DNA of 64,000 nucleotides, taken from the IMG/VR virus record IMGVR_UViG_3300035181_001974. One strand, written 5' to 3'. The translations under genes and the position numbers were made by a program. The DNA is from a virus. Each line of letters starts with the position of its first letter. Positions within the stretch are counted from its first letter, which is position 1. This document shows positions 2,279 to 43,200 of the stretch, piece by piece. The notes beneath the pieces are model-generated. The model ran no database searches and was not told where the DNA came from. It saw only the letters and a list, made by a program, of their open reading frames with translations.

Positions 2279-2752
2279 ATGTCTGGAACAGGCAAAATGT
2301 CACGTCAGCAACTGAAGGCAATCGTCAAAGAGTGCCTCGTTGAGATCTTGCAGGAAGGCCTGGGATCGGGTGCTGGCGCTTCGATGGGAATGACGCTGCC
2401 CGTCACTGAATCTCGCGCTCCTCAGCGTCCGGTCGCTCGAGGAAAGTCGCCGCTTGACATGCAGACATTGCCCAACGGGCGACGCCCGACTGAGGCACTG
2501 GCTCAGGCCATCAAAGCTGAGGCACGCGGCAACGCGCTGATGGCAGACATTCTGGCAGACACCGCCATGACGACCTTGCCCAAGATGTTGGGCGCCGGAG
2601 ACTCAGCGGCTCGTCCGTCTGAAGGCACCCAGTCCCGCGTCGTGCAGGAAGAAAAGTTCGTTGGCTCACCTGAAGAGGTTTTTGGTGAAGAGGCGGCGTC
2701 AAAGTGGGCCAACCTGGCTTTCATGGATGCACCGGCCAAGAAAACCGCGTAA
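2279..2752 (+). CDS. Small protein with a CTS-like N-terminus (family member 1)
   Basis: N-terminus M(SGTGK)MSRQQLKAIVKE resembles the MKITxxQLRxIIRE family; the rest is low-complexity. Confidence 0.5.
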   Translation: MSGTGKMSRQQLKAIVKECLVEILQEGLGSGAGASMGMTLPVTESRAPQRPVARGKSPLDMQTLPNGRRPTEALAQAIKAEARGNALMADILADTAMTTLPKMLGAGDSAARPSEGTQSRVVQEEKFVGSPEEVFGEEAASKWANLAFMDAPAKKTA

Positions 2753-2806
2753 TCGCGGGGTGATGCCTATTTAGACGTAGCACTAAACGCAGGAGAGGGT
2801 GCATAG

Positions 2807-3058
2807 ATGAAGCTCACGTCAAAGCTACTCAAGAAGATCATTGAAGAAGAAGTCGGTAAGTTCGGGGACATGGAAGACCCGGAGAAGCGCGCCAAGGACA
2901 CCGACGAGGTGGATGCGGACGAGTATGCTGACGCTCTTGAGAAGAAGATCGACTACGCCAAGGCGTTGAAGGTCGAAGAGTTGCGCCTTCGCGCTCGTCT
3001 CAACAAGATCGTCGAGACCAGGGCCCGGGTTATGAAGTCGATCCGTAAGGGCGTCTGA
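2807..3058 (+). CDS. Small acidic protein with a CTS-like N-terminus (family member 2)
   Basis: N-terminus MKLTSKLLKKIIEEE. Strong RBS AGGAGAGGG. Highly charged 83-aa product. Confidence 0.6.
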   Translation: MKLTSKLLKKIIEEEVGKFGDMEDPEKRAKDTDEVDADEYADALEKKIDYAKALKVEELRLRARLNKIVETRARVMKSIRKGV

Positions 3059-3073
3059 TCAAGGAGAACGAAG

Positions 3074-3637
3074 ATGCCTGCTGGTAAGGGAAAGTACACG
3101 ACATACGTTCCGCCGAAGTCACCGCGGAGGACGTTTTTTGAGAACCTCTTCAAGGGGGACTCGACGACGTCGCCACCGTTCTACGGCGTGGACCAGGCCG
3201 ACGCCTACAAGTACGCGGCCAAGGAGGGTAACGACATCCTCCGTGCTGCCGCTACTTCAGGCATTCAGGCTGGCGATGCGCAGCACTTCCCGGATGGTGT
3301 TGATTTCACCTACGGTGGCGCCAAGGCATCGATTCAGGCTCCTGACACATCGAAGGGTGCTGATGACGCTTGGGTCAACGCAGGAGATCCTGCGAACTCC
3401 TACGTTCCTGACCTATCATCTCCTGGGCCGGGCAAGACAGACGGCGTCGACAAGTCGGCAAATCCGAAGATCAAGTCTTCTGATGTTAAGCCCACCTACG
3501 TGCCCGGCGGACCGAACACGGGAACTCGTTCCCCGACGGCCACGAGTGGCAAGGTCCATGATGCGAATACCCTGGGCGACGCAGGCACCATCACATCTAT
3601 GCCAGATCCCAAGTCGGGTCTGGAACAGTTCAAGTGA
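3074..3637 (+). CDS. Hypothetical low-complexity protein (187 aa)
   Basis: AAGGAG RBS 7 nt upstream of the ATG. The overlapping alternative frame 3138..3686 is Arg/Ser-rich and looks spurious. Confidence 0.5.
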   Translation: MPAGKGKYTTYVPPKSPRRTFFENLFKGDSTTSPPFYGVDQADAYKYAAKEGNDILRAAATSGIQAGDAQHFPDGVDFTYGGAKASIQAPDTSKGADDAWVNAGDPANSYVPDLSSPGPGKTDGVDKSANPKIKSSDVKPTYVPGGPNTGTRSPTATSGKVHDANTLGDAGTITSMPDPKSGLEQFK

Positions 3638-5741: not shown

Positions 5742-7643
5742 ATGTCTTCAAAGTTTTTTACACTGGACCAGCTGGCCCAGGGCATCCGCGAGAAGCACGT
5801 CGGTGCTGAGCGTGCCCGTCTTGTTGAGAAGTGGAGCCGTACTGGCTTGCTCCGCGGTCTCGACGGTTTCAAGCGCGAGACGATGGCGCAGCTCCTGGAG
5901 AACCAGGCTGCCCAGGTCCTGAAGGAGTCGAACTCCCTGTCCACTGGCGGCGGCGCTGTCGCTTCCTCGGGTCAGATCCAGGGCTTCTCGAACATCGCCT
6001 TCCCGATCGTCCGCCGCGTCTTCGGTGGCCTCGTTGCAAACGAGCTTGTCTCGATTCAGCCGATGAGCCTACCGTCTGGTCTGATCTTCTATCTCGATTA
6101 CACCTACGGCTCGAACGTTGGTGGTGATGCTGGCTCGCAGCTTAGTAACTCCTCGGCCTACGAGACTTACCAGCGTGGCCAGTCGATCTACAACAACCCG
6201 ACCGGCAAGGGCATCCAGTCTGGATCACTCGCCACGGGTGGTATGTACGACCTGGTGAATGTCGGTTACTCGAAGGTGCACTCGGCCTCGCTGGGTGTCT
6301 CGGGTTCGAACCTCGACCTTGGCGCATGGACCGGTGCCAACAACGCTTGGGCCGCCGGCGGCATCGTGGCCTCGAGCACGGACTTCTCGGGCACCAACGC
6401 CCGCATGTTGCAGTTCGATCCGCAGGTTGAGGTCGACCTGGGCAGCAACCTCCTGGATGTAACCTTCGTCCACCTCTCGGTCGCGGCAATCGCAGCCCAG
6501 ATCCCGAAGGGTGACTTCCTTGCTCCGGAGCAGATCGCTCTCTTCGGCTTCCAGGCGAACAACGGCGCCGTTGAGTGGGGTGACTCCTACCAGTCGGGCA
6601 AGGGCCTGCTGAACCTCCGTCGTCTGAACAAGCGCGGTGACTGGAACGGCTCGGTCTTCACGCCGAACCCGCTGAATGGTTCGCACATTCAGTTCGTGCT
6701 GAAGCTGTCGAACGGCGGCTCGGTTCCAACGCTGAACACGGCGACGCAGAAGGTTTCGATGGCGATCGCCGACGCCCTCATGGTCGATGGTGGCTCGGGC
6801 GCGACCTTGACTGTTCCCTCCTTCGAGACGGACTTCTCGGTGACCCCGGCTCCGGCCATCCCCGAGATCGATATCAAGATCGAGTCGATCGCAATCACCG
6901 CGACAACCCGCAGGCTCCGCGCTCGCTGGTCGCCTGAACTCGCACAGGACCTCAACGCGTACCACTCGATGGACGCTGAGGTCGAGCTGACGAGCATCCT
7001 TTCGGAGCAGATCGCTCTCGAGATCGACCGCGAGATCTTGAATGATCTCGTCTCTCAGGCCAACGGCGCGAACTTCTTCTGGTCGCGTTCGCCGGGCCGC
7101 TTCGTGAACAAGCTGACGGGTGACCGTCAGCAGCTGGCGAGCTCCTTGAGTATCGGCCCGCAATTCACGGGCACGGTCCGCGAGTGGTACGAGACGTTGA
7201 TCGAGACGATCATCGACGTGGCGAACACCATTCACCGTAAGACCCTTCGCGGCTCGGCCAACTTTATGGTCACCGGCCCGGACGTCTGCACCATCCTCGA
7301 GGCTTCCACGCTGTACAAGCCGAAGTTCTCGATCGATGGCGAGGGACAGGTTGGCTCTCCGTTTACCATTGGTGCGGAAGCGATCGGCACGGTGTCCAAC
7401 CGCTTCACGGTCTACAAGGACCCGTACTTCCCCCGCAACAAGATCCTGATCGGCTACAAGGGCGGCAGCTATCTCGAGACGGGTTACGTGTACGCCCCGT
7501 ACGTGCCACTGATCGTCACCCCGACGATTTTTGCGCCGGAAGACTTCACGCCGCGCAAGGGTGTCATGACCCGATACGGCAAGAAGATGGTCCGCACGGA
7601 CTTCTACGGGACCGTCACAGTGTTGGACATGAACGTCATCTGA
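5742..7643 (+). CDS. Major capsid protein (T4 gp23-like)
   Basis: Blocks shared with T4 gp23: ...WSPELAQDLNAYHSMDAEVELTSILSEQIALEIDREI..., IGYKGGSYLETGYVYAPYV..., ...MTRYG.... Followed by a terminator. Confidence 0.9.
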   Translation: MSSKFFTLDQLAQGIREKHVGAERARLVEKWSRTGLLRGLDGFKRETMAQLLENQAAQVLKESNSLSTGGGAVASSGQIQGFSNIAFPIVRRVFGGLVANELVSIQPMSLPSGLIFYLDYTYGSNVGGDAGSQLSNSSAYETYQRGQSIYNNPTGKGIQSGSLATGGMYDLVNVGYSKVHSASLGVSGSNLDLGAWTGANNAWAAGGIVASSTDFSGTNARMLQFDPQVEVDLGSNLLDVTFVHLSVAAIAAQIPKGDFLAPEQIALFGFQANNGAVEWGDSYQSGKGLLNLRRLNKRGDWNGSVFTPNPLNGSHIQFVLKLSNGGSVPTLNTATQKVSMAIADALMVDGGSGATLTVPSFETDFSVTPAPAIPEIDIKIESIAITATTRRLRARWSPELAQDLNAYHSMDAEVELTSILSEQIALEIDREILNDLVSQANGANFFWSRSPGRFVNKLTGDRQQLASSLSIGPQFTGTVREWYETLIETIIDVANTIHRKTLRGSANFMVTGPDVCTILEASTLYKPKFSIDGEGQVGSPFTIGAEAIGTVSNRFTVYKDPYFPRNKILIGYKGGSYLETGYVYAPYVPLIVTPTIFAPEDFTPRKGVMTRYGKKMVRTDFYGTVTVLDMNVI

Positions 7644-9602: not shown

Positions 9603-9664
9603 CGCTGTGAGGCCATAATTACGGCCATCGATCTTTGACAACTGAGCTGTTCGGTCAAATGCAC

Positions 9665-10036
9665 GGGGGCGACTAGGCTTCGACGTGGCATTGAGACTGT
9701 AGACTGCAGGCACTGGTGCACGAGGGACCAGTTCAAAACCCATGTGACGTATAAACGCCAACGACAATGGTGTTGCTCCTCTCGCCCTCGCGGCCTGAGG
9801 AATGGGGTCCTGGCGCCTAGAAACAGAAAGCCAGGGAAAACGTCGGGGAACCGGACGTTAAGCGGAACACGTCAAAGCACTGGACGTAAAACGTAGTGTC
9901 GAGTTGGTGACCAGCTCGCTAAATTTCGCGTCGCTAGACCCGTCCGGAGGTTGAGCAACAAGACGGACCAAGCCTGTGGATGAGGTCCTCAGAGGATCTG
10001 TTACGGACCCCGGTTCGATTCCGGGCGCCTCCACCA
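9665..10036 (+). ncRNA. ssrA: tmRNA (ssrA), one-piece, about 372 nt, with encoded CCA
   Basis: 5' GGGGGCGACUAGGCUUCGACGUGG matches the tmRNA consensus GGGGCUGAU..GGAUUCGACGGG. 3' end has a T-arm CCCGG/UUCGAUU/CCGGG, acceptor CGCCUCC and ACCA. The acceptor helix GGGGGCG/CGCCUCC carries a G3-U wobble, the Ala identity element. Internal tag ORF 9757-9795 GCC AAC GAC AAT GGT GTT GCT CCT CTC GCC CTC GCG GCC TGA encodes ANDNGVAPLALAA. Confidence 0.85.
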
Positions 10037-10246
10037 TGTTCTATTTTGATCACCTCCACGGAAATGACGTGTAGTTATTGTCATGTGACGATGTGATGAA
10101 TGTGAACTTCTCTTTGAGACTTTTCAAGCTAAAGCTAACCACGTGAGGTGGCAACATAAGCCCCAAGCGTATTCAAAGAAGGCCTTGAAAAGATCAAAGA
10201 GAACGCTCGCGCCTCCACTGCAAAGAGGTGCGGTGAAAAGACGCTC

Positions 10247-18309: not shown

Positions 18310-19620
18310 ATGCCGCTACAGAGCCCGGTACAGACAGACATCAACGGCAACCCAATCGGCACCTCGACGAACCCCGTCTCGGCGCAGGTCACGGGTTCGT
18401 TCAAGTCTACGCTGGCCGACTCATTCGGCAGCAACATCCGCGCCACTGTTGCAGATGAGCTCCGCGTTGCAGGCCTATACCTGCTTGCGGACCTCACCAA
18501 CAAGTATGAGCTCGACACTCGCCTCTGGGACGTGCTGACGGCGTCTGCGGGTTCTGTGACTCACGTTCCCGCAGAGTCAGCACTTCGTGTAGCTGTCGTC
18601 GGCACCTCTGGTTCATCTGCAACGTTGAGGACCAACACGTACTACAAGTACCAGGCAGGTTACACTCAGCTGATCGGAATGTCAGTTATCAATTCTGACA
18701 CCGGCCAGGCAGGCCAGCTCAGGGACTGGGGCTACGTAGATGACAACAACGGATTGTTCTTTCGTCTCAATGGTACGTCCTTCAACATCGTCGAGAGGTC
18801 TGACGCGACGGGTGTAGTCGTCGAGACCGTCATCTCGCAGAGTGCCTTCAGCAAGGACCCGGTCAATGGCTTTGGCGCCAGTGGTCTTAACCTCAATGTC
18901 TCGAAGGGCAACCTATACGAGATCGAGGTGCAGTGGTTCGGCGTCGGCACCACACGTTATTTCATTGATGACATCTTGGTCCACGAGTCGAAGCACGCCA
19001 ACACCCTGACGCTGCCATACATGCGTACGGCTAAGTTGCCAGTGCAGGCCAAGGTGACGAATCTTGTGTCGTCGTCTGCTGGTTATCTCGATCTGATCTG
19101 CGCTCGTGTGGCGGCACAGGCTCAGACTGTTGAACCTGCACACTGGGTCTATGGCGTGGGCAACACAAATTCGGTGTTGATCACTCAGGTTGAAGCCCCT
19201 GTCCTCTCGATCAGGCCCAAGTCAACGTACAACGGCATCACCAATCGCAGCATCATTCAACCCAAGTCGTTGTCAATCAGCACACAAGGTTATCCGATTG
19301 CCTTCCGCATCATCGCTAATCCCGTGTTGACGGGCGCTTCATTCAACTCTTCGGGCAATACCAGTTTGGTGGATTACGATGTTGCTGCCACTGGATTCAC
19401 CGGTGGCGAGGTCTTGTACCGCGGCGTCGTCAATTCTGACCTTGGCGTGGTGACAATTGACATGCAGAAGTTCTTCCAAGTGTACGGTCGAATCATGCGC
19501 AACGCAGGTTTCTTGGGCATAGGAGTAAACGCCAACGACATCTTGACAGTTGTGGCCTCGAACTTGGGCGCGGGCAAGACGCAGGTCAAGGCTGACATGA
19601 CCTGGTTGGAGATCAGATGA
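18310..19620 (+). CDS. Putative tail fiber or structural protein (436 aa)
   Basis: Large ORF in the structural run; its N-terminus NGNPIGTSTNPV mirrors the previous gene's NGNPIGVPTNPL. Confidence 0.5.
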   Translation: MPLQSPVQTDINGNPIGTSTNPVSAQVTGSFKSTLADSFGSNIRATVADELRVAGLYLLADLTNKYELDTRLWDVLTASAGSVTHVPAESALRVAVVGTSGSSATLRTNTYYKYQAGYTQLIGMSVINSDTGQAGQLRDWGYVDDNNGLFFRLNGTSFNIVERSDATGVVVETVISQSAFSKDPVNGFGASGLNLNVSKGNLYEIEVQWFGVGTTRYFIDDILVHESKHANTLTLPYMRTAKLPVQAKVTNLVSSSAGYLDLICARVAAQAQTVEPAHWVYGVGNTNSVLITQVEAPVLSIRPKSTYNGITNRSIIQPKSLSISTQGYPIAFRIIANPVLTGASFNSSGNTSLVDYDVAATGFTGGEVLYRGVVNSDLGVVTIDMQKFFQVYGRIMRNAGFLGIGVNANDILTVVASNLGAGKTQVKADMTWLEIR

Positions 19621-23472: not shown

Positions 23473-24360
23473 ATGAAGGAGTTGGGCACCATGCGAGCAC
23501 TTGTTCTGAGTGGTGGAGGCGTCAAGGGTGCCTTTCAGGTGGGCGTCCTGAAGAAGTGGATGGGCGAACAAGGCATCGATTATGACATCATCTGTGGTGT
23601 TTCAGTCGGCGCCTTGAACACTGCTGGCATCGGCATGACGCCCAAGGGTTCGCCGAAGGAGGCGGTTGCCTGGTTGGAAAACTTCTGGCGGACGCAGGTC
23701 AATCAGAAGAACATCTACAAGCGCTGGTTCCCGTTTGGACGCTTGCACTCACTGTGGGAGAAGTCAGTTTATGATTCGTCTCCTCTGATCAAGCTTGTCA
23801 GCGATAATCTACATCTCGAGAAGGTTGCCTCCAACGGTCGCATGCTGGCGGTCGGAGCTGTCTCGTTGGACACTGGAGAACACAGGTTTACCCGCGAGAG
23901 TGATCCCAATTTTACGAAGTGGGTTCTAGCCTCGGCATCTTTTCCAGTTTTCTTGCAGCCCATTGAGATCGAAGGCCAGTTGTGGTCAGACGGCGGCATC
24001 AAGAACGTGACTCCTTTGGGCGAGGCAATTAGGCTCGGAGCAACTGAGATTGACGTCATCATGTGTACCAACATCGAGGAGATGACTCGATGGGATTCAA
24101 CATCGAAGCGCGCGGTTCCTGACGCAGTGACTCGCGCCGTCGACCTCATGTCTGACCAGATCATTAAGAATGACATTGAGATGTGTGGCCTAAAGAACGA
24201 TCTCTCGGTCATCGATCCACAGTACCGCAAGGTGACGGTGAGGGTCGTGATGCCTGACGCGCCGTTGGTCCAAGATTCACTGACGTTTTCACCCGAAATT
24301 GTGTCAGGCTTGATCGACAAGGGCTATGCCTTTGCTGATCGAGCGGTGATGTACCATTGA
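23473..24360 (+). CDS. Patatin-like phospholipase
   Basis: LSGGGVKGAFQVG (GGGxK/RG oxyanion motif), GVSVGALN (GxSxG nucleophile) and WSDGGIKN (DGG catalytic Asp). Confidence 0.75.
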   Translation: MKELGTMRALVLSGGGVKGAFQVGVLKKWMGEQGIDYDIICGVSVGALNTAGIGMTPKGSPKEAVAWLENFWRTQVNQKNIYKRWFPFGRLHSLWEKSVYDSSPLIKLVSDNLHLEKVASNGRMLAVGAVSLDTGEHRFTRESDPNFTKWVLASASFPVFLQPIEIEGQLWSDGGIKNVTPLGEAIRLGATEIDVIMCTNIEEMTRWDSTSKRAVPDAVTRAVDLMSDQIIKNDIEMCGLKNDLSVIDPQYRKVTVRVVMPDAPLVQDSLTFSPEIVSGLIDKGYAFADRAVMYH

Positions 24361-29198: not shown

Positions 29199-32100
29199 AT
29201 GCCCGAGCAGACTTTCAGGTCGCCCAACTTTTTCGAGCGCGAGATTGACATTTCGACCCCGACACCCGTCGGTCCGGTCGGAACGCCTGCCGGCGTTGTC
29301 GGCACCGCAAACAGGGGACCTGCGTTCGTCCCTGTCACGGTCGGGAACTTCGATCAGTTCATTGCCACATTCGGCAACCTTGATCCAAAGCTCTTTGGTC
29401 CGTATGCGGTCAACGAGTTTCTAAAGCATCGCAGCGCATTGACCTATCTCAGGGTCCTGGGCGCGGGTGCCAACGCAACGCAGTCAGACATCGCCAACAC
29501 GTTGCAGACGGGTCGAGTTCTCTCGGCTGGCATGCACCTGGATGGCACTCCGGCCGTTGACGACAAGCTGGGCCGCCACAACGGCGCAATCCAGTTCTTG
29601 GCAGCTCAGCACACCTTGCAGAGCGATGAGGCCTATGGAATCCCGATGTTCACGGACAACGATTCCTACTCGGGATCGACCGTCAACCTGGTCCGCGGCA
29701 TGGTGATGCTGCCGACCACCGCGCGCCTCATGGTCCTGGATGGCAACGGCACCGCCGTCGGCGCCTTCAACGGCAGCAACGTTGACTCGGCCTTGATGGT
29801 TGGTGGCAAGTTCAAACTCGCGATTTCTTCGACCTTGGGCAATGCCTTCTGGAACACGGATGGCAACCCGGGCGTCAGGATCTTCACGGCCTCACTTAAT
29901 CCGACGAGCCCAGACTACTTCGCCAAGATCTTGAACACGGATCCTGACAAGTTCGTCCAGGAGCAGCACCTGGTCTATGCAGACTTCCCGGTCGATGATG
30001 AGCTCGCCACTGCGACTGTGGTCGGCGTCCTCTCGGGCTCCAACAACACCAGCAGCACCTCGGGTGACAAGACCCTTCCGATGAGGAAGGTCTTTGGAGC
30101 CTTCGACACGCGTTACCGTGCACCGTCCACGACGTACTTCATCTCGCAGCCATTCGGCACGACAGAGTACGACCTCTTCAAGTTCGAGGCATTGGACGAC
30201 GGCGAATACGCCAACAACCTCTTCAAGATCGCCATCACGGACCTCAAGGCTTCGCTGGACGATTCCAACCCGTACGGCACCTTCACCGTCCAGATCCGCG
30301 ATTGGAACGACACGGACACCAATCCGTTGGTCCTGGAGATGTTCCCAGGCTGTTCACTGGATCCGATGTCAGATCACTACATCGGCAAGTTGATCGGCGA
30401 TCGCAAGGTCAGCTATAACTTTGACACGACGTTGGACTCTGAACGCCGCGTGGTCGCCACAGGCAAGTACCCGAACGTCTCGCAGTATGTCCGCGTTGTC
30501 ATCGCGGACCAGGTTGAGCGTGCTTTGGTGCCTCAGAAGTCGCTACCCTTCGGCTTCCGCGGCGCGGTGGTCCCGAAGACCAACGACCTGTTGACCGACG
30601 CTTCACCGTCTTCCGCCACTGCACGGTTGGCTGGCGTCCTGGGCGTGGGTTCCGCGTCTTCCCTGTCGGGTTCGATCATCCCGCCCGTTCCTTTCCGCAC
30701 CAAGGTGACGAAGGGCGATGCTCCGGCCGGCGCAGCCTGGCTTGGCCAGCCCGGTTCGACTGAGCTGACACTCAGCCAGTTCTACTGGGGCGTCAAGTTT
30801 GAGCGCAACACTCTGCCGCTCAATCCCAACCTCATCAACGACAAGAACGGTCTGCTCGAGTCGTACACCAAGTTCATGGGCATTCCTAAGTTGGACGCCT
30901 TGGTCTCTGGCTCGGGCGCAGACCAACTGAACAACAACAAGTTCACGTTGGCGAAGGTTGCACTGTCCAATGGTGCCCTGACTGACATCACCTCGTCGGT
31001 TCAGGATCACATGAAGGAAGCAGCTTACATCCGTAACGGCAAGCTCGACCTGACCAACTACACCATCAAGGATCCGGTCCTCGGACCGCGTGTCACATTG
31101 GCCACCTTGTTGGCTCAAGGCAGCGCCTCGGACTTCAATCGCTTTTCGCAGTTCACCAAGTTCATCACCTTCATGGCTGGTGGCTGGGACGGCGTCAATG
31201 TTCTCGACCGCGATGCGAGGAGGATGAATGACAAGGCCTCGTCCTTCGACGCTGGCGGCGGTGCTGCGGTCGGTTACTCGGCGCCTGGTCTGGGTTACAA
31301 CCCGACCGGGACGGGTCAGCAGAATGCGACGGTCGCTTCCTACAAGACGGCAATCGACATCATGACTGATCCTCTGGTCGTCAACACGAACATCCTGGCG
31401 TTGCCGGGCATCCGCGAGAGCTTTATCACAGAGTATGCCCTCAACAAGGTCCGCGACTACGGTCTGGCCTACTACGTGATGGACATCCCATCCTACGATG
31501 ATTCCTCGAACCGTCTGTACGATGACTCGGCAGCACGGCCCTCGATCGATCAGACGGCAAACCAGTTCGATGCTCGAGCGTTGGACAATAACTACGCTGG
31601 CACGTACTACCCGGACGTCTTCGTTGACGATGCGACCAACCGCCGCCGCGTCAAGGTTCCGGCCTCGGTCGCCGCCATGGGTGCCTTGGCCTTCAACGAT
31701 CGCGTTGCCTACCCATGGTTCGCGCCTGCCGGCTTCAACCGCGCAGCGCTGGACTTTGTCACCAACGTCAGCGTGCGTCTCAATGTGCCCGATCGTGACA
31801 GGCTCTACGATTCACGAATCAACCCGATCGCAACCTTCCCGAGGCTAGGCTTCGTCATCTATGGCCAGAAGACGTTGCAGATCAACAAGTCGGCACTCGA
31901 CAGGGTCAACGTCCGTCGCCTCCTCCTGGAGGTCAAGCGCATCATCATGGGTATCGCTCAGAAGCTGGTCTTTGAGCAGAACACCCCCGAGGTGCGTAAC
32001 AAGTTCGTGGCCGACGCAATCCTGCAACTAGGTCTAATTCAGTCCCAGGCTGGCGTGGAAGCGTTCCAAGTTATCATGAACGAGACGAACAACACGCAGG

Positions 32101-32213
32101 AAGACATCGACCTCAACCGCCTCCGCGGTCGGATCGTCGTGGTGCCGACGAGGGTCATCGAGTATATCGCGATCGACTTCATCATCACTAACAGCGGCGT
32201 CCAGTTCGTGTGA
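29199..32213 (+). CDS. Tail sheath protein, paralog 1 (1004 aa)
   Basis: N-terminus ...FRSPNFFEREIDISTP...GTANRGPAFVPV...FG matches the T4 gp18 N-terminal pattern (SPGIELKET...GKFQWGPAF...FG). C-terminus GQKTLQ...DRVNVRRLL...NETNNTQEDIDLNRLRG...V.P.R matches the sheath C-terminal domain. Confidence 0.85.
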   Translation: MPEQTFRSPNFFEREIDISTPTPVGPVGTPAGVVGTANRGPAFVPVTVGNFDQFIATFGNLDPKLFGPYAVNEFLKHRSALTYLRVLGAGANATQSDIANTLQTGRVLSAGMHLDGTPAVDDKLGRHNGAIQFLAAQHTLQSDEAYGIPMFTDNDSYSGSTVNLVRGMVMLPTTARLMVLDGNGTAVGAFNGSNVDSALMVGGKFKLAISSTLGNAFWNTDGNPGVRIFTASLNPTSPDYFAKILNTDPDKFVQEQHLVYADFPVDDELATATVVGVLSGSNNTSSTSGDKTLPMRKVFGAFDTRYRAPSTTYFISQPFGTTEYDLFKFEALDDGEYANNLFKIAITDLKASLDDSNPYGTFTVQIRDWNDTDTNPLVLEMFPGCSLDPMSDHYIGKLIGDRKVSYNFDTTLDSERRVVATGKYPNVSQYVRVVIADQVERALVPQKSLPFGFRGAVVPKTNDLLTDASPSSATARLAGVLGVGSASSLSGSIIPPVPFRTKVTKGDAPAGAAWLGQPGSTELTLSQFYWGVKFERNTLPLNPNLINDKNGLLESYTKFMGIPKLDALVSGSGADQLNNNKFTLAKVALSNGALTDITSSVQDHMKEAAYIRNGKLDLTNYTIKDPVLGPRVTLATLLAQGSASDFNRFSQFTKFITFMAGGWDGVNVLDRDARRMNDKASSFDAGGGAAVGYSAPGLGYNPTGTGQQNATVASYKTAIDIMTDPLVVNTNILALPGIRESFITEYALNKVRDYGLAYYVMDIPSYDDSSNRLYDDSAARPSIDQTANQFDARALDNNYAGTYYPDVFVDDATNRRRVKVPASVAAMGALAFNDRVAYPWFAPAGFNRAALDFVTNVSVRLNVPDRDRLYDSRINPIATFPRLGFVIYGQKTLQINKSALDRVNVRRLLLEVKRIIMGIAQKLVFEQNTPEVRNKFVADAILQLGLIQSQAGVEAFQVIMNETNNTQEDIDLNRLRGRIVVVPTRVIEYIAIDFIITNSGVQFV

Positions 32214-32336: not shown

Positions 32337-35300
32337 ATGGCACAGCTAAAGTTCGGAAGCGCTGGCGTGACGGCAAGGGAAATCGATCTTTCGGGTCCAG
32401 TGACCCAGGAACCAGTCGGTGTTCCCGCAGGCGTTATTGGCACGGCAGTGAAAGGACCTGCATTCATCCCGGTCACCGTCGGCACGATCGATGACTTCTA
32501 CGCCAAGTTCGGTAAGACCGACGGCAAGAAGTTCGGCCCGTTGGCTGTCACTGAGTGGATGCGCAAGGCGCAGGCAGTGACCTATCTCAGGGTCCTGGGC
32601 GCAGGCGATGGCCGCACGCGGAATGATGACGGCTCGGTCAACGGCGCTGGTTTCACTGTCGGACAGCAGTTGCCGCGCGCCTCAGATGGCACGCTGGACG
32701 GTAACCCGTACGCCAATTCGGGCGCTTTGGGTTCTCCTCTGGGTCGAGCCTACTTCCTCGGCGCGTTCATGTCAGAGTCTGCTGGTTCGACTATCTTCTC
32801 GTCGGCCGGCATCCAAGGATTGGGTTCAACGACTCCCGGTGCAGACACTGCCGCGGTCATCGTTCGAGGCATGCTGATGGCCCCCTCGGGCGTTATCCTC
32901 CGCGTGTCTTCTTCGACAGCCGGTAACTCTTCAGCCCCTCCGTCGAACCTCGTTGCTACCGATGGCACCGCTCACGGTGGCTTGGTCGGCACCGTCGTCC
33001 TGATGGACGCAGGTGTCGCAAAGTCGGACTTCGTGCTGCTGTTGAACGGTCACCAGGGAACGGACCCGCTGTACCCGAACGTTATCACGGCTTCGTTCGA
33101 CATGACGAGCCCGAACTACTTTGCCAACGTCCTGAACACGGATCCCTACAAGATTCAGCAGGCTGGTCACTTCCTGTATGCATCCTGGGACGTTCACCCT
33201 GCTACTGCAGTGGTCACCGGCTCGGGCCTCGTTTCCGCGCTGTCAGGTGCAGGTGCGGCCACGGCGCCCAAACCGGGTGCTGAAACTGCTGTCTTCCTGA
33301 CGACAGCTTCTCTTGCACGCAACGTTGGTTCGAGCACGGTCCCGAACTACGAGGCCTTCACTGATCGTTTCAGCCACGCTAAGTCCCCGTGGATCATCTC
33401 GCAGAAGTTTGGTGGCTCGCCTTCCAATCTCTTCCGGTTGCATGCTCTGGATGCCGGCGCCAATGTCTCGACGCTATACAAGATCTCGATCGAGAACATC
33501 ACCCCGTCGACGGACCCAGCCAACAAGTTTGGTTCCTTCGACCTGGTTCTCCGCGACTGGAACGACCGCGATGCTGCTCAGCAGCCGCTGGAACAGTTCC
33601 GCGGCGTCAACTTGGATCCGAGCTCGGATCGCTACATCGCCAAGATTGTCGGCGATGCTCACGTGTTCTTCGACTTCGACCGCGCCGAGCCGGCCCAGAA
33701 GATCGTCTTCGACGGCAACTACCCGGCACAGTCGAACCTCGTCCGCGTCGAGGTCGATCTTGGGGTTGAGAACGGCACCGTCGATCCGACGGCACTGCCC
33801 ATGGGCTTCCGCGGCGTCGAGCACCTCGTCACCTCTGGCTCTGCTCCTCTGACAAGCGTCACTGACGGCAGCTTGACTGCGGCCACCTACCTGAAGCGCG
33901 CAATCGAGCCGCCGCTGCCGATGCGTTCCAACATCACCGCAGGTTCTGGCGCCAAGGTCCAAGTCAACCCATTGCTCTACTGGGGCGTCCAGTTCGAGCA
34001 CGTGGCCAGCCTGGCGACTCCGAATGCATCGACCTTGAAGAACGCTTCGTTGAAGTCGTTTGCCAAGTACTTCCCGGACTTCTCGGAGATCAACCAGAAC
34101 GTGTCTGTCGGTGACAACACCGGCGCGGTCGACACCGGCGCGTGGGGCATCATTGATGCCGACAGGTTCTGCAACAACCTGTTCACCCTCGAGAACCTGC
34201 AGGTCGTCACGGCATCCACGACGTTGGCTGACCCGACGCAGTGGGTCTCAGCACAGTACGTGCGTGGTGGTGCGATCACGGCTAACGATGCCAACAAGAC
34301 GCGGGCCTTCAAGACAGACGATCTCGTCCAGGCCAACCGTCGGTTCGCCAAGTTCAGCTTCCTATTGCAAGGCGGCTTCGACGGAATCCTACTGTTCGAC
34401 AAGGACTCAGCAGAGATCAACAACGCAGCCATCACGGCTGACATGAACGCCACCAACCGTGGCAGGGACCAGGGCTCAAACGTCCGGACCTACGCCAAGG
34501 CGCTGGAAATCATGAAGAACGTGGTGAACACAGACATCCAGTTGCTGGCGATCCCTGGCATCCGTCACCCGATCGTCACCAACGCAGCGGCTGACGCGGT
34601 CAAGGAACGGTTTGATGCTCTCTACATCATGGACATCGAGCAGTTCGACAACACTGACACTGAGGTCTTCACTGATTCGCAGCTGCCGTCTGTCACCTAC
34701 ACCGCCAACTCGTTCGCCAACCGCGCGATGGACAACAACTTCGCCGCTGCCTACTTCCCAGACGTGGTGATGCCGGATCCTAACACCAAGACCAACGTCG
34801 TCGCGCCACCTTCTGTCGCGGTCCTCGGCGCCCTGGCCTTGAATGATGCGGTCGGTCACCCCTGGTTTGCTCCAGCCGGTGTCACCCGCGGTGCGTTGCC
34901 GACTGTCCTCGAGGCCCGTGTTCAGCTGTCGAAGCCTAACATGGACGCACTCTACGATGTCGCCATCAACCCATTGGTCGCCTTCCCGGGAACTGCCGTC
35001 GGTGGCACCAACCCGAAGGGCGGCGTGGTGGTTTGGGGTCAGAAGACCCTGCAGGCCGCGGCCTCGGCTCTCGATCGCGTCAACGTTCGCAGGTTGCTGA
35101 TCGAGATCCGCCGCCAGGTCCGCGACATCTCGCAGACGATCATTTTCGAGCCCAACAGGGCTGCCACCCTGGCCCGCTTCACGGCCGCGGTTACCCCGCG
35201 TCTGCAGCGCATCCAGGCTCAGGCGGGCCTCGAGCGGTTCAAGGTTATTATCGACTCCAGCACCACGACGCAGCAGGACATCGAGAACAACACGATCCGC

Positions 35301-35384
35301 GGTAAGATCTATGTCCAGCCGACCAAGTCGATCGAGTTCGTCTCCTTGGACTTCGTGGTCACCAACAACATCACCCAGCAGTGA
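32337..35384 (+). CDS. Tail sheath protein, paralog 2 (1015 aa)
   Basis: Same N-terminal (ITAREIDLSGP...GTAVKGPAFIPV...FG) and C-terminal (GQKTLQ...DRVNVRRLL...TTQQDIENNTIRG...V.P) sheath signatures as paralog 1. Both genes are preceded by GATACTTAC. Confidence 0.85.
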   Translation: MAQLKFGSAGVTAREIDLSGPVTQEPVGVPAGVIGTAVKGPAFIPVTVGTIDDFYAKFGKTDGKKFGPLAVTEWMRKAQAVTYLRVLGAGDGRTRNDDGSVNGAGFTVGQQLPRASDGTLDGNPYANSGALGSPLGRAYFLGAFMSESAGSTIFSSAGIQGLGSTTPGADTAAVIVRGMLMAPSGVILRVSSSTAGNSSAPPSNLVATDGTAHGGLVGTVVLMDAGVAKSDFVLLLNGHQGTDPLYPNVITASFDMTSPNYFANVLNTDPYKIQQAGHFLYASWDVHPATAVVTGSGLVSALSGAGAATAPKPGAETAVFLTTASLARNVGSSTVPNYEAFTDRFSHAKSPWIISQKFGGSPSNLFRLHALDAGANVSTLYKISIENITPSTDPANKFGSFDLVLRDWNDRDAAQQPLEQFRGVNLDPSSDRYIAKIVGDAHVFFDFDRAEPAQKIVFDGNYPAQSNLVRVEVDLGVENGTVDPTALPMGFRGVEHLVTSGSAPLTSVTDGSLTAATYLKRAIEPPLPMRSNITAGSGAKVQVNPLLYWGVQFEHVASLATPNASTLKNASLKSFAKYFPDFSEINQNVSVGDNTGAVDTGAWGIIDADRFCNNLFTLENLQVVTASTTLADPTQWVSAQYVRGGAITANDANKTRAFKTDDLVQANRRFAKFSFLLQGGFDGILLFDKDSAEINNAAITADMNATNRGRDQGSNVRTYAKALEIMKNVVNTDIQLLAIPGIRHPIVTNAAADAVKERFDALYIMDIEQFDNTDTEVFTDSQLPSVTYTANSFANRAMDNNFAAAYFPDVVMPDPNTKTNVVAPPSVAVLGALALNDAVGHPWFAPAGVTRGALPTVLEARVQLSKPNMDALYDVAINPLVAFPGTAVGGTNPKGGVVVWGQKTLQAAASALDRVNVRRLLIEIRRQVRDISQTIIFEPNRAATLARFTAAVTPRLQRIQAQAGLERFKVIIDSSTTTQQDIENNTIRGKIYVQPTKSIEFVSLDFVVTNNITQQ

Positions 35385-36535: not shown

Positions 36536-37027
36536 ATGCCAGCTGAGACACTTGACGTTACATCGATGCTGCCCAACAAGTTCGAGCCGAAGCGCAAGAA
36601 CCGTTGGGTCCTCATGATCGAAGGCCTCGACGCCTACATCATCAAGACGACCTCACGACCGACGGTGGCCACCGAAGAGGTCGAGATTCCATTCATCAAT
36701 TCACGCCGCTACCTGGCCGGCAAGACGACGTTCAACACCATTCCGGTGACGTTGCACGATCCGATTGCACCGTCCGGCGCGCAGCAGGTGATGGAGTGGA
36801 TCCGTACGTGCTACGAGAGCGTCTCGGGCCGTGCTGGTTACGCTGACTTCTACAAGCGTGACGTCCAGTTGAAGCTGCTGGATCCCGTGGGCACCGTCGT
36901 GGAACTTTGGGACATCAAGGGTGCATTCTGCACCGAGGTCAACTTCGGTGAACTGACGTATGAAGACGGCGGCCCGGCTGAGATCAGCCTAACACTGCGC
37001 TTCGACAACGCGTGCCTGCAATTCTAA
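36536..37027 (+). CDS. Tail tube protein
   Basis: 163 aa. Lies immediately downstream of the sheath genes. Strong RBS GGAGA. Size and composition fit tube proteins. Confidence 0.6.
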   Translation: MPAETLDVTSMLPNKFEPKRKNRWVLMIEGLDAYIIKTTSRPTVATEEVEIPFINSRRYLAGKTTFNTIPVTLHDPIAPSGAQQVMEWIRTCYESVSGRAGYADFYKRDVQLKLLDPVGTVVELWDIKGAFCTEVNFGELTYEDGGPAEISLTLRFDNACLQF

Positions 37028-38261: not shown

Positions 38262-38337
38262 ACGGCCGACACGTGTGCCAGGTCCCTATTTACGCAGTGG
38301 TGACAGGAGGGTAAGATCACCACACAAGGGACCACAA

Positions 38338-39201
38338 ATGTCAGAACAGCGTGAACAGCGAAACGAAATCTTCAAGGGCGCCGCCGGCGTTGATCCTCGG
38401 ATTCCCCAGACAACGACACAGGCTCAGGCTAAACAAGACTTTGGCCTAGAGATCCCAGTCGAGACCGTCCCGCTGCCGTCAAACGGCGCGACCTACCCCG
38501 TTGATTCTCCATTGCACGGTCTTGAGACTGTCGAGATTCGTGCCATGACGGCCCGTGAGGAGGACATCCTGACGAGCAAGGCTCTGTTGAAGAAGGGCAC
38601 CGTCATCACGGAACTGATCAAGTCGTGCTTGATCGACAAGCGCATCGATCCCCGTGATCTGTTGATCGGTGACCGCAATGCGCTGATGGTTGCCGTCCGC
38701 ATCACCGGTTACGGTGCTGAATACGACGCCGAGATCGAGTGTCCGGAGTGTCAGACCAAGGCACCTCACCAGTTCAACTTGGCGGCGCTGCCTCTACGTC
38801 GTCTAGAGATCGAACCCGTTGCCGAAGGCATGAATCTCTTCGAGTTCACGTTGCCCTACAGCAAGAAGACTGTTCGTTTCCGCTTCCTGTCAGGCCGCGA
38901 TGAGGAAGAGATGCTGTCGACTGCTGAGAAGCAGAAGAAGTTGGGCCTGTCGACCGAGGCCGGCGTGACGACGAACTTGCTGTACAGCATTGTTTCGATC
39001 GACGGAGTCGAAGACCGCGCCAAGATCGCGGCCTTCGTTCGCATGATGCCGGCTCGTGATTCGCTAGCACTGCGTAACTACATTCGCGACAATGAACCTG
39101 GCATCGTGATGAAGCAGGAGACCTCGTGTCCTTCGTGCGGTCACTCCGAGGAGGTCGGGATGCCGCTGGGTGTGACGTTTCTTTGGCCTGCAGCCAAGTG
39201 A
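38338..39201 (+). CDS. Hypothetical protein with two CxxC pairs (CPEC...CPSC), putative zinc-binding
   Basis: ATG 38338 preceded by RBS GGAGGG. CTATTTAC motif upstream. Confidence 0.55.
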   Translation: MSEQREQRNEIFKGAAGVDPRIPQTTTQAQAKQDFGLEIPVETVPLPSNGATYPVDSPLHGLETVEIRAMTAREEDILTSKALLKKGTVITELIKSCLIDKRIDPRDLLIGDRNALMVAVRITGYGAEYDAEIECPECQTKAPHQFNLAALPLRRLEIEPVAEGMNLFEFTLPYSKKTVRFRFLSGRDEEEMLSTAEKQKKLGLSTEAGVTTNLLYSIVSIDGVEDRAKIAAFVRMMPARDSLALRNYIRDNEPGIVMKQETSCPSCGHSEEVGMPLGVTFLWPAAK

Positions 39202-39481: not shown

Positions 39482-40195
39482 ATGCCGAAGGACAAGTGGA
39501 CATCTGCTGGCGGTGTGGTTCTTGACAACATGGAAGAGCCTTATCGGGTCTTCGTTTGTAAACCCTCAAACAACTACGGCCCTTGGTGCTTTCCCAAGGG
39601 CCGAGTTGACCCCGGCGAGGGAATCGAGGCAACGGCACTCCGCGAGGTCCAAGAAGAGGCCGGAGTTCCGGCTAAGTTGCTGCCGAATGGCAACTTGGGA
39701 ACAGGTATTGGATCGTACAGCATCACGCACTACTTCATGATGGTCAGGACGGGCCCGGTGGGAGGTCACGACTACGAGATGGAGGAAGTGCGCGCTGTCA
39801 CGTTTGAAGAGGCTGAACAGCTCTTTTTGAGCGAAGGCAACTCTCGCGATATTGGGATCCTAAATCGCGCTCGGGACTACCTAGCTAAGCACGCCCCCAA
39901 ATCCGTGACGATTGAATCAAAGCAGCCGATCAACGAACTTCACACCAACCTGCTTGGGAAGATCTTCTTCACCACGCTGGGCGCCTGGCTTGTCGGTAAG
40001 GCTGTCAACACTAAGATCCGCGGGACCGTCGAACAAGTACGCGCGGTCAGCAATGCAATGCTGGCTAGCCGAAACTTTCAGGAAGAACTACGCCGCCCAG
40101 GCGCCACCGTCGAGAGCGTGATGCAGAAGCTCGGCGTCAAGCACATGACAGCGTCTGAGTTCGAGCGCATTCTCGGCGTGCCTTGGCCCCTCTGA
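39482..40195 (+). CDS. Nudix hydrolase
   Basis: Nudix box GRVDPGEGIEATALREVQEEAGV (G-x5-E-x7-REUxEExGU). Confidence 0.8.
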   Translation: MPKDKWTSAGGVVLDNMEEPYRVFVCKPSNNYGPWCFPKGRVDPGEGIEATALREVQEEAGVPAKLLPNGNLGTGIGSYSITHYFMMVRTGPVGGHDYEMEEVRAVTFEEAEQLFLSEGNSRDIGILNRARDYLAKHAPKSVTIESKQPINELHTNLLGKIFFTTLGAWLVGKAVNTKIRGTVEQVRAVSNAMLASRNFQEELRRPGATVESVMQKLGVKHMTASEFERILGVPWPL

Positions 40196-40203
40196 GGTGA
40201 TCC

Positions 40204-43200
40204 ATGGCAGGGCCTATTGACAAAGAACAACTAGACATCGCGACAAAGATGGCGGCCCTGATGGACCGCATGGCCGCGGCGTCTAACAAGATCGACGATG
40301 CTCAGGCGACTCAGGTTGAGTCGATGAAGCAGCTCGCGGCGGCCATGGGCACGCTCGATGTCAGAGAGACTGTCAACCAGCTGAACCAGGTCACTCAGAG
40401 TCTCAAGATCCTGATTGACAAGATGGGTGATCTGTCCAAGACGCAGCAGGCGACCCTGGATGAACTGGGTAAGAAGGCGGCCACTGCTGGGACCTCCGTT
40501 CAGGCCTTGACTGGCCGCATGAAAGAAACGCAACAGGCCGCGCAGGGAGTCAACCAGACGAAAATGGATGATTTCTTGAGGGCCCTCGAGGAGCCCGGTG
40601 GGGTCTCCAAGTTGCTGCTCAAGCAGCTGCAGAAGTTGGGCGACTACCTGTCCAAGAAGTTCCCAACATCTTGGGCGATCTCGGCCGCCGCGATCTCGGG
40701 ATTCAAACAGGGCATCAAGAACGTCATGGCCATCGGCAAGGGCCTGATGGGCTTCTTGGGAGGCCTACTCGATTCGTTGGTTAACATCGCGGGCGCGATC
40801 ATCGCGATTCCATTCAAGATGTTCAAGGGCCTGGTCGACATCGCCAACAATGCGGCGGGCGGCTCTAATGAGCTGCTACAGGCCATCGAGAACATTCGTA
40901 AGGAGTTTGGAGCCCTCGATCAGACGGGGCCCAAGGCCATCTTTGCGATGGCAACAGAATTGAAGGGTTTCTCTGACACGGGCCTGTCAGCCTGGCGCGT
41001 CTTCGGCGACATGGCTCACCGCCTCGAGGAATTCCTGAAGCTGTCGCAGGAGATGGGCCCGACCTTTGAGAACTTCGCACAGGAGTTCCACGATAATGGT
41101 GGTGCCTTGCTGGCCTGGCAGAAAGGCCTCGGTCTCAGCGGCGAGATGATGGGAACCATCGGCGCTCGTGCCAAGATCTTTGGTACCACGATGGCAGACC
41201 AGTTGATGCCCATCCAGAAGCAGGCGATGGACCTGGGCAAGCAGTTTGGCATTGCTTCGAAGCACATCTCACGGGACATGGTCAAGGCCATGAACGACGT
41301 GAAGCACTTTGCGGGTGCCACCGTCAAGGAGATCGGTCAAGCATCGGTCTATGCCCGCAAGCTGGGCCTCGAGCTCGACAAGATCACCGGCATACTTGAT
41401 GCCTTCGAGACGTTCGACTCAGCGGCTGAAAATGCTGCCAAGCTGTCGCAAGCCTTTGGCATTTCCGTCGATGCTTTCAAGTTGATGGAGGCACAGGATC
41501 CCGCGACGCAGATCGAGATGCTCCGCAAGCAGTTCGCTGCCGCCGGTGTTGATGCATCCCAATTCAATCGTCAGCAGAAGAAGTTGTTGGCCTCGACCAC
41601 GGGCCTCGATGAGAAGACAGCGCAGATGGCCTTCTCGATGAAGAACCAAGGCGCGTCCCTGGATGACATCAAGAAGAAGAGCGAGCAGGCCGAGAAGAAG
41701 CAGTTGAGCCAGGCCGAAGCCATGGAGAAGTTGGCCGACTCGATTGAGCGCATCGTGATGGCAGGCGGCTCCAGCATGCAGGGGGGCTTCTTCGATAGAT
41801 TCTTCCATGGGTTCTTGGGTGGCATTCAGGCCTCCAAGGAGTTCCGTGATATCATCTGGAACATCAAACGTGGCATGTTGTTGGTCGAACAGGCTGGCGT
41901 CAGGCTAGGGAAGGCCTTCGTTGAGGCCTTCCCTGGCGTCAAGGATATTCTTGGTGGAATCGCGGAGCTCTTCAGTCCGAAGAAGTTCGGCGCACTGTTC
42001 AATGGAATCACTGATGAGCTGATCAAGTTCTTCAAGGGCTTCACCAAGGGCGAATACTCGTTCTCGAAGTTGATGGACAACCTCAAAGAGAAGTTCTTCG
42101 ATTTCTTCAACAAGAGTGAGGGCGCTGGCAAGCGGGTGCTCAACGGCTTCAAGGAGTTCTTCCTCACGATTAGCAAGATGCTGGGTGAGGCCATCAAGTG
42201 GATCTCCGACAAGATGAAGGACGTCATCGTCTGGATCACTGACGTCATCACGGGCAAGGTCGAGTTGGGCGTGCCCGGGGGCTCTGGCGCTTTGGGATTC
42301 CTGGGAGACCTGTTGGCACCCATCGCGGAAGGCCTAAAGCACGCGTGGAAGGTCCTAGCACCTGCAATTTGGGACCTGCTCAAAGTATTGGGTGGCAAGG
42401 TCCTTAACTTCCTCCAGAACACTGTTCTACCAGCCGTCAAGCCGTTCATTCCAATGTTGGCGGGAACGCTGTTTGGACCTGCACTGACGCGAGCCGCGCT
42501 GGCCGCATTGACCACCGCACTGGGTAAGGGCTTCATCGCAGGTGCGGGTGCTATCTTCAAGAAGTTCGGTCCGAAGATCGCGGAGGCAGCCGGCACAGTC
42601 AAGTCAGCGCCTGAGGCCCCAGGTTCACCGCTACCCAGCGCAGGCAAGTCAGAAGAGATCATCAAGGCCGGTCAGGCAGCTGAAAAAGGTGGCACTGGCA
42701 TCAACTGGGCCAAGGTCAAAACGTTCTTGTTGGCAGTTGCCGGCGTTATCCTCATCGGCATGGTCGCCGTCTTCGCCGCGATCATTCTCATTCGTAAGTT
42801 CAACATCAAAGACGCTGAATTGATCGAAGGCCTGAAGACAGTGGGCCTTGCTGCGTTGGCTATGGTTCCAGCAGCACTTGCGTTGAAGATCGTCTCGAAG
42901 GTCAATGTTGATGCCAACACGGGCAGCGGTCTGCTTGCGGTGGGTCTAGCTTTGCTTGCGATGGTTGGCATTATGGGCCTCGTCTATTTGGCTCTCAAGG
43001 GCGTTGACATCAATCGCATGAAGAATGTCGTCGACGTCTTGTGGGAACTGTCGAAGGTGTTCCTGGCTGTCAGCCTCGTCACCCTCGCTGCCATGGGCAT
43101 CGGTGCTATCATCATGTCAACATCGGGCCTCGGCGCGATTGCGTTGGCCGCTGGCATGACAGCGTTGGTCGCGGCAGTAGCTGTCATGGGTGAAGCCGCT

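Follow-up and report, generated by a model that had tools for sequence, protein, structure and literature searches.

We identified a complete one-piece transfer-messenger RNA (tmRNA, ssrA) gene of 372 nt, including an encoded CCA end, on the plus strand (9665–10036) of the window, i.e., the 64-kb stretch of the IMG/VR virus record IMGVR_UViG_3300035181_001974 that was analysed here. An earlier note, made from the letters of this DNA, had read such a phage gene at this place and proposed ARAGORN and the Rfam model RF00023 as checks. Both were positive and agreed on the coordinates, ARAGORN with the tag ANDNGVAPLALAA* and Rfam with a match along the entire model (positions 1–374 of 374; 93.1 bits against a gathering threshold of 47, E = 5.9e-35). 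The tmRNA is the sole tRNA-like gene called by ARAGORN in the window, and the Rfam scan returned no other family above threshold in the window and no riboswitch or other Rfam element attached to the tmRNA. A two-anchor motif scan of IMG/VR combined with an nhmmer profile search recovered about 31 distinct homologues (117–312 bits) with a mean column identity of 61%; counts and pairing percentages given below refer to the 31-sequence alignment unless stated otherwise.

The tRNA-like domain is complete, with a 7-bp acceptor stem, a T arm, and a discriminator base followed by CCA, and both helices covary in the 31 relatives. The gene begins with GGGGGCGACTAGGCTTCGACGTGG and ends with the T arm, acceptor strand, and ACCA (10009–10036), at both ends as previously described. 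In tmRNA numbering (position 1 = 9665), the acceptor stem is formed by 1–7/362–368, i.e., by seven pairs between GGGGGCG (9665–9671) and CGCCTCC (10026–10032), the latter followed by the discriminator A (10033) and the encoded CCA (10034–10036). G3 (G9667) stands opposite the equivalent of U70 (T10030), and the alanine identity pair that had been proposed is thereby confirmed. This G3·U70 pair is GU in 28 of the 31 sequences while the surrounding pairs vary between GC, CG, UA, and AU, which is the pattern expected under selection for alanine identity. These acceptor-stem counts are counts of alignment columns; automatic re-registration was dropped, as an upstream T can pair with the discriminator. 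An apparent G4·U69 instead of G3·U70, unexpected for alanine identity, was seen in L017 (11610–11966, GGGGCCG/CGGTCCC) and L121 (958–1333, GGGGGCG/CGCTCCC). The T arm CCCGG-TTCGATT-CCGGG (10009–10025) is 96% paired with compensatory changes in four of its five pairs, and the D-loop analogue ACTAGGCTTCGAC (9672–9684) contains GG and TTCGAC, the latter invariant in all 31 sequences. CCA is encoded by the window gene and not by most relatives (e.g., L005, L024, L016, L034; ...CTCCACTGC), which would need a host CCA-adding enzyme.

The tag reading frame GCC AAC GAC AAT GGT GTT GCT CCT CTC GCC CTC GCG GCC TGA (9757–9798, plus strand) was called by ARAGORN exactly as it had been read before, including its ALAA end. 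It encodes (A)NDNGVAPLALAA followed by a stop, with the alanine resume codon GCC at 9757 (tmRNA positions 93–95) and the stop codon TGA at 9796–9798 (132–134). The upstream context of the resume codon, TAAAC (9752–9756), provides an A at −4 (9753), the position (A86 in Escherichia coli) that sets the tag frame; this A is kept in 30 of 31 relatives and a pyrimidine is found at −5 in all 31. The ANDN start of the tag is invariant (31/31) and the in-frame stop is at its usual place in 30 of the 31 tags, the exception being L140. LAA ends the tag in 23 sequences and IAA, HAA, or LVA in the rest, again except L140. The peptide of L139 is identical to that of the window despite seven synonymous differences. 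The tag peptide is thus under selection, because it is conserved through synonymous changes. In L140 (11979–12352) the tag stop is mutated from TGA to TTA, giving a predicted tag of 34 residues (ANDNGVAPFALAALGTGV...), so that L140 carries either a naturally extended tag or a gene copy in decay. The stop codon of the window gene lies in the 3' strand of a tag hairpin (9777–9801; 113–117/133–137 and 120–122/128–130 in tmRNA numbering) that is 74–90% paired and shows compensatory changes.

The secondary structure was evaluated with an explicit pseudoknotted model of 99 pairs that was counted on the alignment and compared with controls in which the 3' partners were slid by 1–3 columns and with 500 shuffles. 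Standard pairs occupy 83.3% of the cells of the model, compared to 35–43% when slid, and 80 of the model pairs changed on both sides. The covariation score is 0.418 versus 0.07–0.12 in the slid controls, and none of the 500 shuffles reached the observed values. A model-free search for covarying columns returned seven helices, namely the acceptor stem, helices 2a and 2d, stem 1 of pseudoknot 1 (PK1), the tag hairpin, a PK2 stem, and the T arm. RNAalifold, which is independent of the 99-pair model, predicted 48 pairs, 35 of them with compensatory changes, and recovered the acceptor stem, helices 2a, 2c, and 2d, stem 1 of PK1, one stem each of PK2 and of the last pseudoknot, and the T arm. Minimum free energy folding of the single sequence gave a wrong helix 2 and is uninformative for a pseudoknotted RNA. 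Helix 2 (20–26/335–341, 33–35/326–328, 38–40/321–323, and 41–47/308–314 in tmRNA numbering) has its 5' strand at 9684–9711 (H2a 9684–9690, H2c 9697–9704, H2d 9705–9711) and its 3' strand, which includes the conserved AAGCCTGTGGA, at 9972–10005. H2a and H2d are 96% and H2c is 82% paired, with many compensatory changes. PK1 (9712–9746) consists of stem 1 (9712–9717/9727–9732) and a stem 2 in two parts (9719–9722/9743–9746 and 9724–9726/9739–9741), corresponding to 48–53/63–68, 55–58/79–82, and 60–62/75–77 in tmRNA numbering. Its pairs are 85–90% formed and show compensatory changes, e.g., from GGG/CCC to GAG/CUC, around the almost invariant core GGTGCACGAGGG.

Downstream of the tag the model places five further pseudoknots (140–171, 177–201, 206–235, 236–271, and 273–304 in tmRNA numbering). 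PK2 (9804–9835) is formed by 9804–9806/9816–9818 and 9809–9814/9830–9835 (90% and 97% paired) and carries the A-rich loop GAAACAGAA; its second stem, which is the one found by RNAalifold, has double changes in all five well-aligned pairs. PK6 (9937–9968; 9937–9940/9949–9952 and 9942–9946/9964–9968) is 96% and 87% paired with double changes in all nine pairs, and RNAalifold found its first stem. PK2 and PK6 are strong in all 31 sequences; in the full alignment PK3–PK5 receive weaker support, as divergence between sub-lineages makes this region hard to align. In the nine window-like sequences PK3 (9841–9865; 9841–9844/9854–9857 and 9851–9853/9863–9865) is 100% paired, with the variants CGUC/GACG, CGCC/GGCG, CGAC/GUCG, and UGUC/GACA, and differs among sub-lineages of the full alignment. 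PK4 (9870–9899; 9870–9873/9883–9886 and 9877–9881/9895–9899) is likewise 100% paired in the nine sequences, with compensatory changes, and 74–77% paired in the 31. The least secure among the five is PK5 (9900–9935; 9900–9903/9915–9918 and 9906–9911/9930–9935), which is 69% and 81% paired in the nine sequences and shows compensatory changes, e.g., from GGUGAC/GUCACU to GGUAAC/GUUACU. Taken together, the ten post-tag helices are 90.1% paired in the nine window-like sequences versus 30–42% when slid, and nine of the ten have compensatory changes, where the model was derived from the window's own sequence and the nine test sequences are mutually related. The Rfam alignment is poor across the post-tag region, with low posterior values. 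PK1 and downstream pseudoknots are present, but the architecture departs from the expected PK1–PK4: the tmRNA apparently has PK1 plus five small H-type pseudoknots after the tag, a count that is that of our model. tmRNAs typically have four pseudoknots in all (PMC11915505); six would be a structural variant and not a change of kind.

More than 560 relatives of the window's major capsid protein were found in IMG/VR. Of 60 relatives scanned with ARAGORN, 12 gave a same-strand tmRNA 3' of the capsid gene; that of the nearest relative, L001, was missed and was found with Rfam (48.6 bits against the gathering threshold of 47). The tmRNA was present, each time 2–7.6 kb downstream of the capsid gene, in nine of the 27 capsid relatives whose sequence extends at least 8 kb beyond that gene. 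Together, synteny, covariation, and tag conservation identify a functional gene and exclude a degenerate remnant. Eight relatives (L001 15234–15604, L140, L139, L084, L138, L093, L142/L145, and L102) have the T-loop GGCAGUA, GGCAGCG, or GGCGGUA where UUCGAUU is canonical. The variant T-loop always occurs with a D-loop AUAG instead of GG (8/8), whereas GG is found in each of the 22 sequences whose T-loop is canonical. Acceptor stems of these variant-loop RNAs covary normally, and the sequences look like a compensated rewiring of the tertiary contact between D-loop and T-loop. ARAGORN misses all of them, and annotators should be warned that it overlooks roughly a third of this phage tmRNA family.

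The window has a G+C content of 55.7% and is coding almost wholly on the plus strand, with phage genes on both sides of the tmRNA. Upstream are a T4-type prohead protease (703–1365), a peptide deformylase (1773–2276; PF01327, E = 1.7e-48), and a Gp23-type major capsid protein (5742–7643; E = 1e-74). Downstream are genes for a virion structural protein (18310–19620), a pair of adjacent tail-sheath paralogues, each about 1000 aa long (29199–32213 and 32337–35384), of which the sheath profiles match the C-terminal third only, a gp19-type tail tube (36536–37027), a T4 baseplate protein (38275–39201), and, for replication, a UvsX-like recombinase (55189–56433), a 5'-3' exonuclease (57873–58850), and a DnaB-like helicase (58847–60310). 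The genome is thus that of a T4-superfamily myovirus, with the tmRNA in its late/structural block and not at a prophage–chromosome junction, in an att fragment, or in host DNA. The open reading frames (ORFs) that flank it had no Pfam or PHROG match, and a Pfam scan found no integrase or recombinase domain in the window. The deformylase had been pointed out before, and its putative functional link to the tmRNA is plausible. An identical capsid protein is present on six contigs, three of them of the 0.2–1 Mb class, which identifies a jumbo phage; related IMG/VR contigs reach 278–394 kb. Contigs of the 0.2–1 Mb class with this capsid gene come from the samples SRR11727740 and JGI 3300036715. Neither megablast with 25 kb nor blastn with the tmRNA region revealed DNA similarity to any of 50,697 deposited phage records. 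The best deposited capsid relative is LR756508.1, a 484-kb uncultured huge phage (48% identity), and no tmRNA was found within 20 kb of its capsid gene.

The motif TCTTTGACAA (9632–9641, plus strand) precedes the tmRNA and is conserved in relatives. It contains the TTGACA that the earlier note had located at 9635–9640 and regarded as −35-like. In about 17 of the 31 relatives the motif, in the form YCTTTGACAA or CCTTGACAAYYTAG, lies 24–31 nt 5' of G1. The bare hexamer TTGACA occurs 64 times in the window, compared to 41 ± 5 expected from dinucleotide-preserving shuffles, with most copies inside ORFs, so that the hexamer alone means little. Exact matches to the extended motif in the window are limited to this site and one inside an ORF on the other strand. 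A role as general phage promoter was rejected because no other intergenic site in the window has the motif. Judged from its conservation, the CTTGACAA-containing motif is probably a gene-specific −35-like promoter element of the tmRNA. Other relatives lack the motif and form a second group, in which the preceding ORF has its stop codon at most about 10 nt from G1; here we infer co-transcription followed by RNase P processing. At the 3' end of the tmRNA, our scan called no intrinsic terminator. The gene is followed (10037–10059) by a T-rich tail, TGTTCTATTTTGAT, and then by CACCTCCAC (10051–10059), a second 9-mer like an acceptor 3' strand, 14 nt past the CCA. It resembles the acceptor strands of relatives (CACCTCCAC) and not the window's own GCGCCTCCAC, and may have been left behind when recombination replaced the 3' end. 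Similar duplicates were observed in L108 (ACACCTCCAC-TATTTTTG-ACACCTCCACCA) and L118. The sequence GATCACCTCC also equals the anti-Shine–Dalgarno end of 16S rRNA.

For the origin of the gene, we defined a family signature composed of the PK1 core, the ANDN start, and the PK2 loop GAAACAGAA. It had no match in 185,579 bacterial and archaeal species, represented by one genome each. A broader tag pattern (GCC-AAC-GAY-AAY, four to six codons, A-[LVIMF]-A-A-stop), which fixes the ANDN codons, gave at least 120 bacterial matches, all of them tmRNA tags. The organisms named among the matches listed are almost all Alphaproteobacteria (Rhodobacterales, Hyphomicrobiales, Acetobacterales, Rhodospirillales, Caulobacterales, and Sphingomonadales), and the commonest tags among them, ANDNRAPVALAA, ANDNYAPVAVAA, and ANDNYAPVALAA, are close to the phage tag ANDNGVAPLALAA. 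The comparison of tags that had been suggested as a guide to the host clade thus points, among the matches listed, to Alphaproteobacteria. Still among the matches listed, ARAGORN classified 98 tmRNA genes as permuted (two-piece) and one, L152, as standard. The latter (2705–3547, on SXOX01000045.1 of a metagenome-assembled genome named 'Proteobacteria bacterium') is non-permuted, has the tag ANDNVEHNLALAA, and adjoins smpB. The profile of the phage family matches the bacterial genes in the tag and the 3' tRNA-like end only, with at most 27 bits compared to 117–312 within the family. Recent capture from a sequenced host lineage was rejected, as the signature is absent there and the bacterial tag matches share only the tag and the 3' end. 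The phage RNA is thus a separate one-piece lineage whose tag is of alphaproteobacterial style. An alphaproteobacterial host, to which the tag points with its ANDN codons fixed by the search, has roughly even odds.

No SmpB was detected in the window by tblastn with E. coli SmpB or by searching for PF01668 among the ORFs, including a Pfam scan of 49 further ORFs, and none was found in 146 related or other viral loci. A scan of IMG/VR recovered only E. coli-type copies at prophage edges, to many of which the E. coli query is 100% identical, and is uninformative for the phage family. Host SmpB would thus be needed, unless the gene is elsewhere in the phage genome. We further consider it conceivable, if doubtful, that this jumbo-phage family has kept an ancient one-piece, six-pseudoknot tmRNA, with an alphaproteobacterial-style tag and no phage SmpB, while infecting Alphaproteobacteria with two-piece tmRNAs, so that a different rescue RNA would plug into the SmpB, alanyl-tRNA synthetase, and ClpXP of the host. 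On this view one sub-lineage, to which L001 belongs, would have rewired the D-loop/T-loop contact from the canonical GG with UUCGAUU to AG with GGCAGUA. If true, the aim may be to stay functional when the rescue system of the host is shut down or targeted.

We regard it as likely that the gene encodes a functional tmRNA of a jumbo T4-like myovirus that adds ribosome-rescue capacity. The tmRNA would be transcribed within the late/structural block, either from its own CTTGACAA element or by read-through from the upstream ORFs, after which host RNase P would cut at G1 and the 3' end would be trimmed to the encoded CCA. Host alanyl-tRNA synthetase would charge the molecule via G3·U70 and, together with host SmpB and EF-Tu, the tmRNA would enter ribosomes stalled on broken or stop-less mRNAs. 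Translation would resume at the GCC at 9757, add (A)NDNGVAPLALAA, and end at the UGA, which would free the ribosome, and the C-terminal LAA would mark the truncated protein for ClpXP-type proteolysis. The likely benefit would be extra rescue capacity at a time when infection fragments mRNA and the demand for translation peaks. The same general role has been proposed for phage tmRNAs (PMC7162821, PMC9004378).

Several points weigh against this interpretation. The tmRNA is common and not universal in the phage family and is dispensable for the lineage, because only 9 of 27 capsid relatives carry it. A simple scan called no sigma-70 promoter upstream of the tmRNA, with no acceptable −10 at 16–18 nt; the −35-like reading of TTGACA in the earlier note holds insofar as the hexamer is part of a longer conserved motif, but a canonical −10 does not accompany it. 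The spacing between motif and G1 is short in the window, and standard sigma-70 geometry would place the start at or inside the mature 5' end. An SmpB gene of the phage could lie outside the 64-kb window, given a genome of more than 200 kb, and huge phages with SmpB have been reported (PMC7162821). Finally, sequence alone cannot separate a benefit from rescue capacity from its rivals, which mainly assume another selective reason (counter-defence or recycling of the proteome).

By the same molecular mechanism, the tmRNA could serve counter-defence and rescue ribosomes that stall when abortive-infection or toxin nucleases of the host cleave mRNA or tRNA, or could replace a host tmRNA that has been shut off or degraded. 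We consider this unlikely as the main reason for its maintenance. Accessory counter-defence genes typically occur in a patchy manner, as does the tmRNA (9 of 27 close relatives), the gene is intact with selection acting on it, and a distinct phage lineage of tmRNA has been kept with no recent capture from a host (signature absent, at most 27 bits). However, no defence or anti-defence gene was recognised adjoining the tmRNA, whose neighbours are without Pfam or PHROG match, and no experiment that links a phage tmRNA to evasion of defence was found in the searched literature.

Improbable in our view is a primary role in proteome remodelling, in which the tag would chiefly send host or incomplete proteins to ClpXP for recycling of amino acids, or would sense host physiology, with release of ribosomes being secondary. 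This idea has been raised for phage Melnitz (PMC9004378). The strongly kept degron-like end (LAA in 23/31, otherwise I, V, or H variants) and the conservation of the peptide through synonymous changes argue for selection on the tag itself and not on ribosome release only, but such conservation is equally expected under ordinary trans-translation. Moreover, tmRNA tags only at ribosomes stalled with an empty A site and cannot itself select host proteins. It is very improbable that the RNA acts as a decoy that titrates SmpB and inhibits trans-translation of the host, as was proposed for the molecule of mycobacteriophage DS6A that consists of a tRNA-like domain only (PMC4131195, PMC11915505). The lack of a phage SmpB in the window would fit, but a tRNA-like domain would suffice for this purpose, whereas conservation with covariation extends to PK1, the resume context, the tag frame, its stop, and the downstream pseudoknots. 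Least probable, and strongly disfavoured, is a passenger or relic without phage role, gained as host tmRNA by integration and excision at ssrA or left as an att-site remnant: tmRNA genes are common integration sites with fragments in prophages (PMC9004378, PMC11915505) and a second acceptor-like 9-mer is present at 10051–10059, but the gene is of full length, keeps its syntenic position, and covaries among sequences with a mean column identity of only 61%, its family signature occurs in no bacterial species genome, and the T4-like phage has lytic-type replication genes and no integrase or recombinase domain in the window.

Phage tmRNA is already known as a kind of gene, and the window gene is a further example. 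Previous reports include eight mycobacteriophages, with the Bxz1 group among the carriers named, Bacillus phage G, and the tRNA-like-domain-only RNA of DS6A (PMC4131195), huge phages (PMC7162821), Melnitz and pelagimyophages (PMC9004378), and, with alphaproteobacterial hosts, Sphingobium phage Lacusarx (PMC5648845) and Sinorhizobium jumbo phage AP-J-162 (PMC11242549). tmRNAs were recorded in 402 of 18,146 phage genomes, with 133 unique structures (PMC9004378). The proportion of about 2.3% of genomes (PMC9004378) agrees with the assertion of the earlier note that tmRNA genes are rare in phages, but the phenomenon itself has been documented, huge phages included (PMC7162821). Like those reported, the window gene is a complete ssrA in a large phage that bears translation genes. 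As in Melnitz-like phages it is patchy within its phage group, 'common but not defining', whereas it is one-piece and the Melnitz and pelagiphage genes are two-piece.

With standard bacterial tmRNA of the E. coli type the window gene shares the full-length covariance-model match, the G3·U70 acceptor, the T arm, ACCA, helix 2, a PK1 just 5' of the alanine resume codon, the A at −4, the ALAA tag, the stop in a hairpin, and ring-closing pseudoknots. It differs in being phage-encoded, in apparently having five small (25–36 nt) H-type pseudoknots 3' of the tag instead of the usual three larger ones, and in its PK1-tag-PK2 signature, which is found in no bacterial species genome. The alphaproteobacterial two-piece tmRNAs are alike in the type and length of the tag, with an ANDN start and an AP-[LV]-ALAA end (ANDNRAPVALAA, ANDNYAPVALAA), and in an ordinary tRNA-like 3' end. 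In contrast to these, the window gene is not permuted (5' acceptor, tag, 3' acceptor), and similarity outside the tag and 3' end is nil. The tRNA-like-domain-only RNA of DS6A is comparable as a phage-encoded tRNA-like domain that by analogy could bind SmpB, but the window gene additionally has a complete and conserved mRNA-like domain with tag frame and pseudoknots.

The interest of the gene is moderate and lies in the size and diversity of its family, the combination of a one-piece form with a tag of alphaproteobacterial type, the apparently six pseudoknots, and the sub-lineage with rewired loops. New is the comparative set of about 31 distinct sequences, which covary richly, include tag variants, and come from a group in which close relatives naturally have or lack the gene. 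It allows one to ask what a phage gains from its own ribosome-rescue RNA, whether the tag must fit the protease adaptors of the host, and how far trans-translation tolerates different numbers of pseudoknots and non-canonical T-loops and D-loops. In addition, the alphaproteobacterial-type tag provides a testable host hypothesis for an uncultivated jumbo-phage family. None of the sequence-level statements made in the earlier note needed correction.

The remainder of the window encodes a NUDIX protein (39482–40195), an HD protein (53230–53817), and three very large ORFs of 1680, 1028, and 1002 aa (40204–45246, 45553–48639, and 48940–51948) that have no PHROG match. A 408-aa ORF (51981–53207) matches only positions 968–1198 of the 1445-position DNA polymerase profile phrog_17, and the DNA polymerase may be split or fragmented. 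Two small minus-strand ORFs (56977–57375 and 57398–57838; no Pfam match at E < 0.01) interrupt the plus-strand replication block between the UvsX-like recombinase and the 5'-3' exonuclease, a placement that by analogy resembles that of homing-endonuclease-type insertions. A patatin-like phospholipase (23473–24360; PF01734, E = 3e-29) is encoded among the virion and tail genes.

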